A DNA stretch of 64,000 nt from an uncultured bacterium (GTDB lineage: Bacteria; Planctomycetota; UBA1135; GCA-002686595). The translations under genes and the position numbers were made by a program. The notes beneath the pieces are model-generated. The model ran no database searches. It saw only the letters and a list, made by a program, of their open reading frames with translations, and was not told the DNA's origin. Positions 49,858-51,951 of this stretch are shown here, one piece after another; position 1 is the stretch's first letter, and the number at the start of each line of letters is the position of its first letter. Location of the stretch: contig CALSNU010000004.1 of assembly GCA_943787795.1 (NCBI GenBank), positions 128,001 to 192,000 on the forward strand, read 5' to 3'.

Positions 49858-50252
49858 AGAATCCGGGGAGCGCAGGAGTTAGCAACACCCCCTGCACTCC
49901 CCATTCATTCTGACTCTCTCTCCACGGCGGACCGCCGTTGCACGGCGGGCCTCCGCTTCAAGTCTCTCTCTATCTCTCAATCTCTCACGCCTGCAGAAGC
50001 AAGCTCGCCCGGATCCGTGATCGGATCCGCCGGGTGAGGGAGGCCTCGGGTTCTGGATTCCCCATCGAACCCGTCACCTTTCCACCCCCCTCGCCCTGCG
50101 AACCAGGATCGAGGATCTCGCGCGGCGCGAGCACCAGGTCCGCAGCCCGAGCCGTCCACCGAGTGGACCGCGCAGGCGACACCCTGACCCTGAGCAGCTC
50201 AGCGCGACTCACGAGGCAGAGGCCGTGAAGGTGGGATTGGTGACTCGTCACG
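49858..50252 (-). ncRNA. Putative sigma54-dependent structured non-coding RNA
   Basis: Downstream of a -24/-12 promoter; at least 6 hairpins, AG-repeat tracts, terminal 14-bp stem with G-U pairs on this strand; no credible CDS. Confidence 0.5.
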
Positions 50253-50262
50253 CTCCACTGGA

Positions 50263-50278
50263 AGCAAACGGCGTGCCG
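50263..50278 (-). promoter_or_regulatory. Sigma54 (RpoN) -24/-12 promoter
   Basis: CGGCACGCCGTTTGCT, exact GG-N10-GC spacing, near consensus YTGGCACG-N4-TTGCW; adjacent to an EBP gene. Confidence 0.85.
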
Positions 50279-50344
50279 CCCGACAGATACAACCTAAACC
50301 ACTACCAGTAAGCGACATAGCAACCCTTTAATGAACCCCTGATG

Positions 50345-50388
50345 CTACATAAGCGTAGGCTTGCCCGCCTGGGCCTACATCGACGTAG
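50345..50388. promoter_or_regulatory. Tandem enhancer (UAS) palindromes CTAC-N6-GTAG x2
   Basis: CTACATAAGCGTAG (50345-50358) and CTACATCGACGTAG (50375-50388), 30 bp apart, about -93 to -136 from the predicted TSS. Confidence 0.75.
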
Positions 50389-50427
50389 GATGCGTTCTCC
50401 GCGAGCTCCTCCAGCCCCCTGCCCACC

Positions 50428-51951
50428 TTGACCGTCTCCCCCCAGCCCCTAGAGAGCGATCTACGACTGCTCTTCGCCATCAACCAGATCCTGGTGGGCA
50501 GCCTGGAGCCGCTCTCCGTTCTGGAGCCCGTGCTTGCTGCCCTCATGGAGGGCACCCACCTCCAGCACGCCATCGTCGCCATGGTCCACCGGACCTCGGG
50601 GGAGCTCCGGATCGAGGCCGCCGTCGGCCTCTCCACCGAGGAGGAGCGCGCGGCGAGAGTGCGCGTGGACACGAGCCCCATCGCCGAGGCGGTTCAGCTC
50701 TCACAGCCCATGACCCTGCCCCTCGAGGATGGGAGCCACCCGCTGCTGGGAGTTTGCTCCCAACCCGAGCCGTGCTCGCTCCTCGTCATCCCCATTCAGC
50801 TCAGCGGCGAGATCGTCGGGGCCATCGCCGGGGACTTCCCGTCCAGCCCTCACACCGAGCTCAGCCACGTCTCGATGCTCATGTCGACGGTGGCCTCGAT
50901 GATCGCTCAGGCCGTCCGGCTGCGGCAGCGAGCGGCCGAGGAACGCGACTCCCTGCGGGCCGAGAACGAGCGGCTGCGGGACGCCCTGAAGGAGCGCTAC
51001 CGGCCGGACAACATCGTGGGGAACGCCAAGCCGATGCTCACGGTCTTCGACCAGATCGCCAGGGTCTGCCGCTCGGACGCCACCGTCCTCATTCGAGGCG
51101 AGAGCGGCGTGGGCAAGGAGCTCGTCGCGGCGGCGATTCACTACTCCAGCGACCGCGCCACGAAGCCGTTCATCAAGGTCAACTGCGCGGCGCTGCCAGC
51201 CTCGCTCCTGGAGAGCGAGCTGTTCGGCCACGAGAAGGGCGCCTTCACCGGCGCGCTACAGGAGCGCATCGGCCGCTTCGAGCTCGCGGACGGCGGCACG
51301 CTCTTCCTGGACGAGATCGGAGAGTTCCCCCTCACCACGCAGGTGCTCCTCCTGCGCTTTCTTCAGGAGCGCCAGTTCGAGCGTATCGGCAGCGCCAAGA
51401 CCCGCAGCACCGACGTTCGAGTGATCACGGCCACGAACGCCGACGTCGAGGAGCAGGTGGCGAGCGGGGCCTTTCGCGAGGACCTCTACTACCGCCTCAA
51501 CGTCTTCCCGATCCACGTCCCCGCCCTCCGCGAGCGAGGGGTCGACGTGATCCCGCTCGCCGAGCACTTCCTCGATGTCCACGCGAAGAAGGGCCGCGTC
51601 GCGACGCCGAGGCTCTCGTCCACCACGCGCGCGCTGCTCAAGAGCCACGCCTGGCCTGGCAACGTGCGAGAGCTGGAGAACTGCATGCTGCGCGCGATGC
51701 TGCAGTGCGAGGGCGACGTGATCCGCTCTCACCACCTCCCCCCCAACATGCAGCCCGCCGGCGAGCAGCCGACGGCGCCGAACGGGAGCCTCGCTGCGAC
51801 CATGGAGCGGGTGGAGCGGGAGCTGATCCTCGACGCCCTGCGTTCCACCCGCGGGAACCGCGCCAAGGCCGCTCGTCTCCTGGACATCACCGAGCGCCAG
51901 ATGGGGCTGCGGGTCAAGCGCTACGGCATCGACCCTGCCAGCCTGCGCTGA
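50428..51951 (+). CDS. NifA/AnfA-like sigma54 enhancer-binding protein (GAF-AAA+-HTH)
   Basis: N-terminal GAF-like domain, [64 protein letters not shown]. Confidence 0.92.

Follow-up and report, generated by a model that had tools for sequence, protein, structure and literature searches.

A predicted sigma54-dependent structured RNA beside an AnfA-like activator in one planctomycete clade, with nitrogen-metabolism leaders as candidate targets

Background

Bacteria can couple a sigma54 enhancer-binding protein to a small-RNA output, as in the LuxO-Qrr, CbrB-CrcZ and GlrR-GlmY systems, where activator and RNA are sometimes encoded next to each other; LuxO, CbrB and GlrR are phosphorylated response regulators. 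Nitrogen-regulated small RNAs also include the archaeal sRNA154 and the cyanobacterial NsiR4, which, to our knowledge, operate without sigma54. Both are described as acting on carbon and nitrogen genes, and sRNA154 activates some of its targets and represses others (PMC9170634). In Pseudomonas stutzeri, the sigma54- or NtrC-dependent non-coding RNAs NfiS and NfiR are reported to tune nitrogen genes through base pairing (PMC6606865). GlnZ is described as a nitrogen-regulated small RNA acting on carbon and nitrogen genes that is cut from the glnA 3' UTR under NtrC.

For the activator considered here, the protein comparisons come from nitrogen fixation. AnfA of Rhodobacter capsulatus is a GAF-AAA+-HTH protein that drives the Fe-nitrogenase genes through a pair of TAC-N6-GTA sites preceding a sigma54 promoter, the site having been derived experimentally (PMC7294313). 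NifA of Azotobacter vinelandii has the same domain order, and its F119S substitution is reported to abolish 2-oxoglutarate binding (PMC9866876).

Here we describe a locus in the window, by which we mean the whole 64,000-nucleotide stretch of DNA analysed, from a 4.71 Mb planctomycete genome (G000). It shares with AnfA both the domain architecture and the pair of TAC-N6-GTA sites ahead of a sigma54 promoter element, but its predicted target is a non-coding RNA, no nitrogenase was found and the GAF domain has been remodelled. Its binding site differs from that of NifA, and it has leucine at the F119 position. The RNA has no Rfam match and is unrelated to Qrr, CrcZ and GlmY; it differs in sequence and in candidate targets from NfiS and NfiR, which act on nif mRNAs and are not known to have a GAF activator of their own encoded alongside. 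Unlike GlnZ, it would have a promoter of its own. A literature search leaning to open-access papers returned no description of this activator-RNA module and no sigma54-dependent nitrogen sRNA in the host phylum. The design of a sigma54 activator with a small-RNA output is already known; the RNA family and its pairing with this activator appear to be new.

Results

The activator and its family

An earlier note on this DNA, made by eye from the letters, had proposed a GAF-AAA+-HTH activator gene, and the domain search confirmed it. The open reading frame (50428..51951, plus strand) encodes 507 residues from an inferred TTG start, with GAF at residues 29-163, a sigma54 AAA+ domain at 196-363 and a Fis-type HTH at 458-499; Walker A, GAFTGA and Walker B all read as intact in the sequence, as befits a sigma54 enhancer-binding protein. 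The label NifA/AnfA-like, also from that note, stands with regard to the TAC-N6-GTA binding site and needs qualification otherwise. NifA is the best match in both NCBIfam (TIGR01817) and the PDB, but the NCBIfam score of 442.4 bits lies below the cut-off of 528.85; no nitrogenase component (PF00148) scored above cut-off in five genomes of 85-90% completeness; and, of the residues invariant in its family, GAF keeps only 29 of 51, while AAA+ keeps 107 of 125 and the HTH 11 of 13. For these three reasons the signal to which the activator responds is uncertain. Leu106 aligns with F119 of NifA in PDB 9qq6, which the matching F119 leads us to read as the A. vinelandii protein, and the signal sensed by GAF has probably changed, to judge from these residues. 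Inside the clade GAF is still 80-89% identical.

Homologues with the same recognition helix occur in 62 of 401 genomes of the phylum (a count that includes G000 and one relative, G006). Among the 30 best phylum loci, 26 carry TAC-N6-GTA sites and 12 have amtB, glnK, glnA or gdh within 1.5 kb. In the best metagenome match, a TAC-N6-GTA site and a sigma54 box immediately precede amtB-glnK-glnA, and one phylum homologue (L242) has the same divergent layout as the window but with glnA, its two palindromes lying 30 nt apart. From this pattern of sites and neighbouring genes we infer that the family regulates nitrogen assimilation by acting directly on protein genes. Members of the family that adjoin amtB, glnK, glnA or gdh, in Planctomycetota and other phyla, share with the activator the helix ITERxMGLRV, the palindromes and 45-52% identity; unlike it, they have nitrogen-assimilation protein genes as neighbours, and none of the 30 loci carries the RNA described below. 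Since distant homologues adjoin glnA, amtB, glnK or gdh, the RNA appears to have taken the place of a protein target in the course of evolution, and not to be the relic of a recent deletion. Loci L239-L268 apparently represent an unnamed AnfA-like family widespread in Planctomycetota, in which palindromes precede the activator gene itself as well as amtB, glnK, glnA or gdh, and its regulon could be mapped by the palindrome alone.

Flanking genes

A convergent GDSL-like hydrolase gene (48707..49544, plus strand; ORF and domain search) bounds the RNA locus. It is broken near 49290 by a frame shift within a C run (49285-49295), probably an assembly error, since the orthologue in a second genome, G004, reads through unbroken. 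From the predicted transcription start (about 50252) to the end of this gene is 708 nt, in agreement with the roughly 700 nt lacking a convincing protein gene that had been noticed earlier, and the ORFs within the gap are not conserved as proteins among the orthologous loci compared. Straight after the GDSL stop, a 17-nt unit stands in 4-5 tandem copies (49544-49628), in G000 only among the aligned loci. A gene for monomeric isocitrate dehydrogenase, which forms 2-oxoglutarate, lies two genes away from the RNA (46420-48645). ARAGORN additionally calls a tRNA-Glu at 44943-45038, within a long coding ORF, and this call is probably spurious.

Operator and promoter

The two CTAC-N6-GTAG palindromes proposed earlier are present at 50345-50358 and 50375-50388, this pattern occurring only three times in the 4.71 Mb genome. 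As predicted activator sites, the proximal palindrome (50344..50359) is centred near -100 and the distal one (50374..50389; CCTAC-N6-GTAGG, in keeping with the AnfA consensus of PMC7294313) near -130. In the genome of the window these two score highest of all sites, as do the same two in 2.0 Mb of G004, and among the top 25 sites of the window's genome they are the only intergenic ones with a sigma54 box nearby. That box, the near-perfect -24/-12 element of the earlier note (50263..50278, minus strand), has GG at 50277-50276 and GC at 50265-50264, which predicts a start near 50252; it is one of seven strict matches genome-wide and the sole one near a high-scoring palindrome pair. G000 has two rpoN-like genes (L113, L114), either of which is a candidate for the sigma54 concerned.

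Alignment of the upstream regions of the seven orthologous loci with the window showed the -24/-12 box and both palindromes, centred at -99/-100 and -129/-130, to be kept in 8/8 loci; of the 16 palindromic sites, 12 are exact and 4 have one change in the second half-site. The region from palindromes to promoter is 64% identical, against 39-51% in the flanks. The AT-richer spacer between them (50281..50340), likewise pointed out before, is present and partly conserved across the orthologous loci, with blocks that may resemble IHF sites. Palindromes were absent upstream of amtB, gdh and glnN in the eight leaders checked.

Distribution of the module

Of the 17 other genus genomes, 7 have an orthologue of the activator, 83-92% identical; a search of 23 family or order genomes gave none at E<=1e-100. 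In a protein collection, identity over the N-terminal region falls from 81% to 39% beyond the orthologue cluster. A covariance model of the RNA core found it in the same 8 of 18 genus genomes (70-90% complete) as the activator, the other 10 missing both and giving model matches only at E>=0.17. The eight carriers form one clade and are not independent cases, so this distribution amounts to one evolutionary event. In none of the eight orthologous loci does a protein gene, such as the glnK or amtB that by the earlier note would have spoken against its reading, occupy the position of the RNA.

Wider searches for the RNA returned only four of the same eight from 151 order genomes, and 22 loci with a two-motif pattern from a species-representative collection, of which 7 are true, with the bit scores of the seven relatives, and 15 fail the model. 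Viral contigs gave 0 and 4 motif-only matches, and the model had no match in the activator loci from metagenomes (79) or from the phylum (30). Diverged homologues may be missed, since all of this depends on near-exact motifs or on a model built from eight close sequences. The glutamine synthetase loci of G006 (L164) and G015 (L166) look identical though their activator-RNA loci differ, through recent transfer or binning overlap.

A structured RNA core on the minus strand

Identity downstream of the predicted start is 39% in the first 148 nt, 74% over a 240-nt core (50104-49865) and 44% in the next 150 nt, which confines the conserved element, first put at the whole 700 nt, to the core. The variable 5' segment (50105..50252, minus strand) has GTG or ATG at +2 to +6 in 8/8 loci and lacks a coding signature. 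The core, on the same strand, opens with P1 (50026..50102), a long covarying stem; it ends in the hairpin GGRUUC-GAUGGG-GAAUCC, of which 15 nt, UUCGAUGGGGAAUCC, are invariant, and contains the candidate seed GAUGGGGAA (50066-50058), indicated by fold and conservation. There follow P2 (49987..50006), a hairpin with compensatory change in 4 of its 8 pairs; an unpaired (GA)n tract of variable length (49958..49986); P3 (49925..49955), a hairpin with the invariant CCGUGCAACGG at 49945-49935; and P4 (49865..49902), a hairpin with the near-invariant loop GGUGUUGCUARC at 49889-49878 and the probable 3' end, which has no U tract. A further hairpin, P5 (49763..49826, either strand), aligns with variable sequence and a partly conserved CUGCC loop motif, and may be an RNA tail or a terminator between the convergent units. 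Three of the loops, together with their stems, have an invariant sequence, and GUUGC of P4 is complementary to GCAAC of P3 in 8/8 loci.

In the core, 98.3% of 480 cells are paired, against 44-54% in slid controls, the structure having been derived from the same eight sequences, which favours this score. Fourteen of 60 pairs show compensatory change, and none of 500 shuffles reaches any of the measures. Furthermore, with 57 G-U against 2 A-C cells the structure is assigned to the minus strand, in the direction that the promoter would read. The predicted transcript folds with a z-score of -3.9, and opening the 8-nt seed of P1 has a computed cost of 3.1 kcal/mol.

The Rfam scan, covering 48500-52500 at E<=1, matched no known RNA family; in the locus L002, there was one opposite-strand match (E 0.37, below the gathering score). 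ARAGORN found no tRNA or tmRNA at the element, and a pattern search found no intrinsic terminator on the minus strand. The P3 and P4 motifs resemble a sigma54 -12 box, but GG is missing at the right spacing. The transcript does not specify a conserved peptide either: ORF lengths range from 49 to 104 codons without a common stop, 2/8 being in another frame, the 5' ORF has no Pfam match, and its differences by codon position (6/12/9, 16/18/23, 16/21/20) compare with 4/0/15 for the activator.

A conserved, covarying structure that carries no coding signature is what a structured non-coding RNA would present, and we consider it very likely that the element is an RNA gene. With the motifs kept in 8/8 loci, the structure on the predicted strand and no protein gene, the comparison favours the earlier proposal of a self-contained sensor-to-sRNA module; we would be surprised if the RNA were not transcribed under the adjacent activator and were not that activator's only direct target.

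Candidate targets

The leader of amtB was examined because of the usual neighbours of the activator family. The invariant P1 loop GAUGGGGA complements conserved sites in the amtB-glnK and gdh leaders that are predicted to be mostly unpaired. The amtB leader has a 17-nt motif with CCCCATC bulged in a conserved hairpin, present in all five RNA-bearing genomes in which amtB was found (the search gave no match in 3 of the 8) and in neither of two RNA-less genomes with the same amtB. It matches GAUGGGGAA over 9 bp in four genomes and 7 bp in one (G015). Its two conserved hairpins (L137:1430-1485, L138-L141) may themselves be a cis-regulatory RNA, although L139 gave no Rfam match, and at L106/L108 (G000:C4:704800-705600) there is a second, truncated amtB fragment together with a glnK copy with stops.

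In G000, with genes called by a codon model (3457 genes, starts approximate), 43 TCCCCATC sites fall outside predicted genes, one of them before a two-gene operon of the glutamate dehydrogenase family. In this gdh leader TCTCCCCATC lies 52-60 nt before the start and is invariant in 6/6 RNA-bearing genomes that have the gene; among RNA-less genomes, 1/10 has CCCCATC in the leader. As the whole gdh leader is conserved within the clade, the motif does not stand out.

Several tests weigh against pairing of the seed with these leaders. When helix and accessibility energies were combined, amtB ranked 206 and gdh 363 of 2149 regions scored (a seed was present in 3416, and the other 1267 reached partial energies of -10.4 at best), and in a ranking by the P1 loop only, 10 and 24 of 341. 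CCCCATC is only mildly enriched in leaders (101 in 2659; an order-2 model gives z 2.5) and is the commonest of 42 words of the same composition. Between G000 and G004 it is kept in 14/36 cases, against 19.5% for shuffled words (p=0.007; 842 leader pairs, including contigs picked for known sites); in stretches chosen blind, it is kept in 7/25 against 86/486, which is not significant (p=0.15; 492 pairs). Given the ordinary energy ranks and the non-significant unbiased test, we treat the nitrogen targets as a lead only, and as one that somewhat more probably fails than holds. The seed being invariant, its link to any target is without compensatory change. Complements of P3, P4, the P1 internal loop and the GA tract showed no preferential conservation.

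Of five further candidates checked, three failed. The leader of a cystathionine-synthase-like gene has the motif in 8/8 RNA-bearing but also in 2/9 RNA-less genomes, and that of ppsA in 5/8 against 2/10. The site before a peptide transporter gene is in only 1/6 RNA-bearing genomes, and those before a microcompartment vertex gene and C4:778069 are unconserved. Beyond these five, the site of an SPFH gene, rank 2 by energy, relies on an insertion peculiar to G000. The match GGATTCCCC upstream of glnN is located before the probable glnN promoter, other near matches to the amtB motif lie within coding regions or unrelated leaders, and a weak RNA-model match near glnN in G006 falls inside an unrelated gene. 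The mild enrichment, the weak conservation and these mixed candidates together suggest that CCCCATC may be a general C-rich leader element predating the RNA. Elements of this kind could be put to use by the G-rich loop, or the matches could have arisen by chance. In the mRNAs of G000, Shine-Dalgarno sequences are not enriched and the stretch preceding the start is rich in C.

Other observations concern these leaders and the nitrogen genes. The words TAGACT, TATCCT, TACACT and TAGGAT, probable -10 boxes, are strongly enriched upstream of G000 genes. Neither glutamine synthetase nor the gene adjoining it in relatives was found in G000, likely an assembly gap, and absence of glnA was rejected as a clade feature, 40/40 relatives having a glutamine synthetase match. 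The glutamine synthetase III leader (L165:6900-7215; L164, L166-L169) is conserved in six RNA-bearing genomes and is a possible cis-regulatory element: it has a purine block complementary to the bases that immediately precede the start codon, and a near-palindrome lies ahead of the probable promoter.

Discussion

The comparison of loci establishes, at the level of sequence, the activator, its predicted sites, the promoter element, the structured non-coding core and its strand, and the strict co-occurrence of activator and core. In the mechanism that we propose, the AnfA-like activator would bind both conserved palindromes and drive sigma54 transcription of a non-coding RNA of about 390 nt, the covarying core of which would act in trans, its invariant GAUGGGGA loop pairing with unpaired UCCCCAUC sites in mRNA leaders. 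The most plausible targets would be the leaders of amtB-glnK and of the glutamate dehydrogenase operon, so that a regulon under direct control in the activator's relatives would here be controlled via RNA. Even granting an RNA transcribed under the activator as its only direct target, the pairing with nitrogen-metabolism leaders is nearly balanced between holding and failing, with a slight lean to the latter; the complete chain from activator through RNA to those leaders leans a shade further that way. It is a guess that under nitrogen limitation ammonium uptake would go up and glutamate breakdown down.

A transcribed RNA could instead serve as a folded decoy or scaffold for a protein or a small molecule, with the invariant loops, and possibly a P3-P4 kissing interaction, as the binding surface. 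Seed pairing leaves the invariance of the P3 and P4 loops unexplained, neither loop having a convincing mRNA complement, and a binding surface would account for a long RNA this highly structured; the constant 5-bp complementarity of P3 and P4 suggests a tertiary contact, yet its pairs never vary and so gain nothing from covariation. This reading would also make the amtB bulge match a coincidence, and CsrA was found in none of five genomes searched, the RNA lacking the repeated GGA loops of CsrB or RsmZ. We regard a decoy or scaffold as rather unlikely, if well worth keeping in mind. A leaderless mRNA or dual-function RNA, in which translation from the ATG or GTG at +2 to +6 makes a peptide or enters P1 and switches the structure, would explain why a start codon persists in every locus within a segment otherwise 39% conserved, and why one frame, common to 6/8, runs through P1. 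The scattered ORF lengths and stops, the two loci out of frame and substitutions without third-position bias exclude a conserved peptide but leave room for translation as a switch, and we find the broader idea improbable.

Two further readings place the element outside trans-acting RNA. The divergent glnA of L242, with its paired palindromes, invites the thought that the core is an orphaned 5' leader, of the riboswitch or attenuator kind, left behind when the ancestor of the clade lost a nitrogen gene, for example glnA; yet none of the eight loci has a gene downstream on the same strand, the core is clearly under selection, and neither Rfam nor the RNA model, run over the 30 phylum and 79 metagenome activator loci, reveals such a leader elsewhere, so that little credence is due to it. 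Alternatively, the element might act as DNA or on the plus strand, for instance as a long leader of the activator gene with an incidental sigma54 box. Members of the family commonly have palindromes ahead of their own gene, perhaps for autoregulation, and TTGACG occurs on the plus strand in P5 of some relatives; against this, the G-U bias shows that the structure belongs to the minus strand, and the -24/-12 box is kept at an exact distance from the palindromes in all loci, which makes such a role very improbable indeed. Transcription of a minus-strand RNA under the adjacent activator remains the reading that we prefer.

Conclusions

The reach of the finding is limited to eight uncultured-looking genomes of one clade, and its general design is known. 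It nevertheless presents a new RNA family for which the activator, the predicted operator, the promoter and candidate targets are all identified from sequence, in a compact module of 2.1 kb that is amenable to test in a laboratory host. We can imagine, as a doubtful scenario, that the clade rewired its nitrogen regulon: a horizontally acquired AnfA-like activator would have lost its direct protein-gene targets and changed its sensor pocket, keeping as its single output a new multi-domain RNA of about 240 nt that reaches amtB-glnK and glutamate dehydrogenase, in a lineage lacking Shine-Dalgarno signals, by a G-rich loop that reads sites in C-rich leaders. Its kissing-loop 3' domain would bind a protein partner. 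If the targets hold, the locus would be a clear example from nature of a regulon that passed from direct control of transcription to control by RNA, and would show how a small RNA can act in bacteria whose mRNAs carry no Shine-Dalgarno signal.
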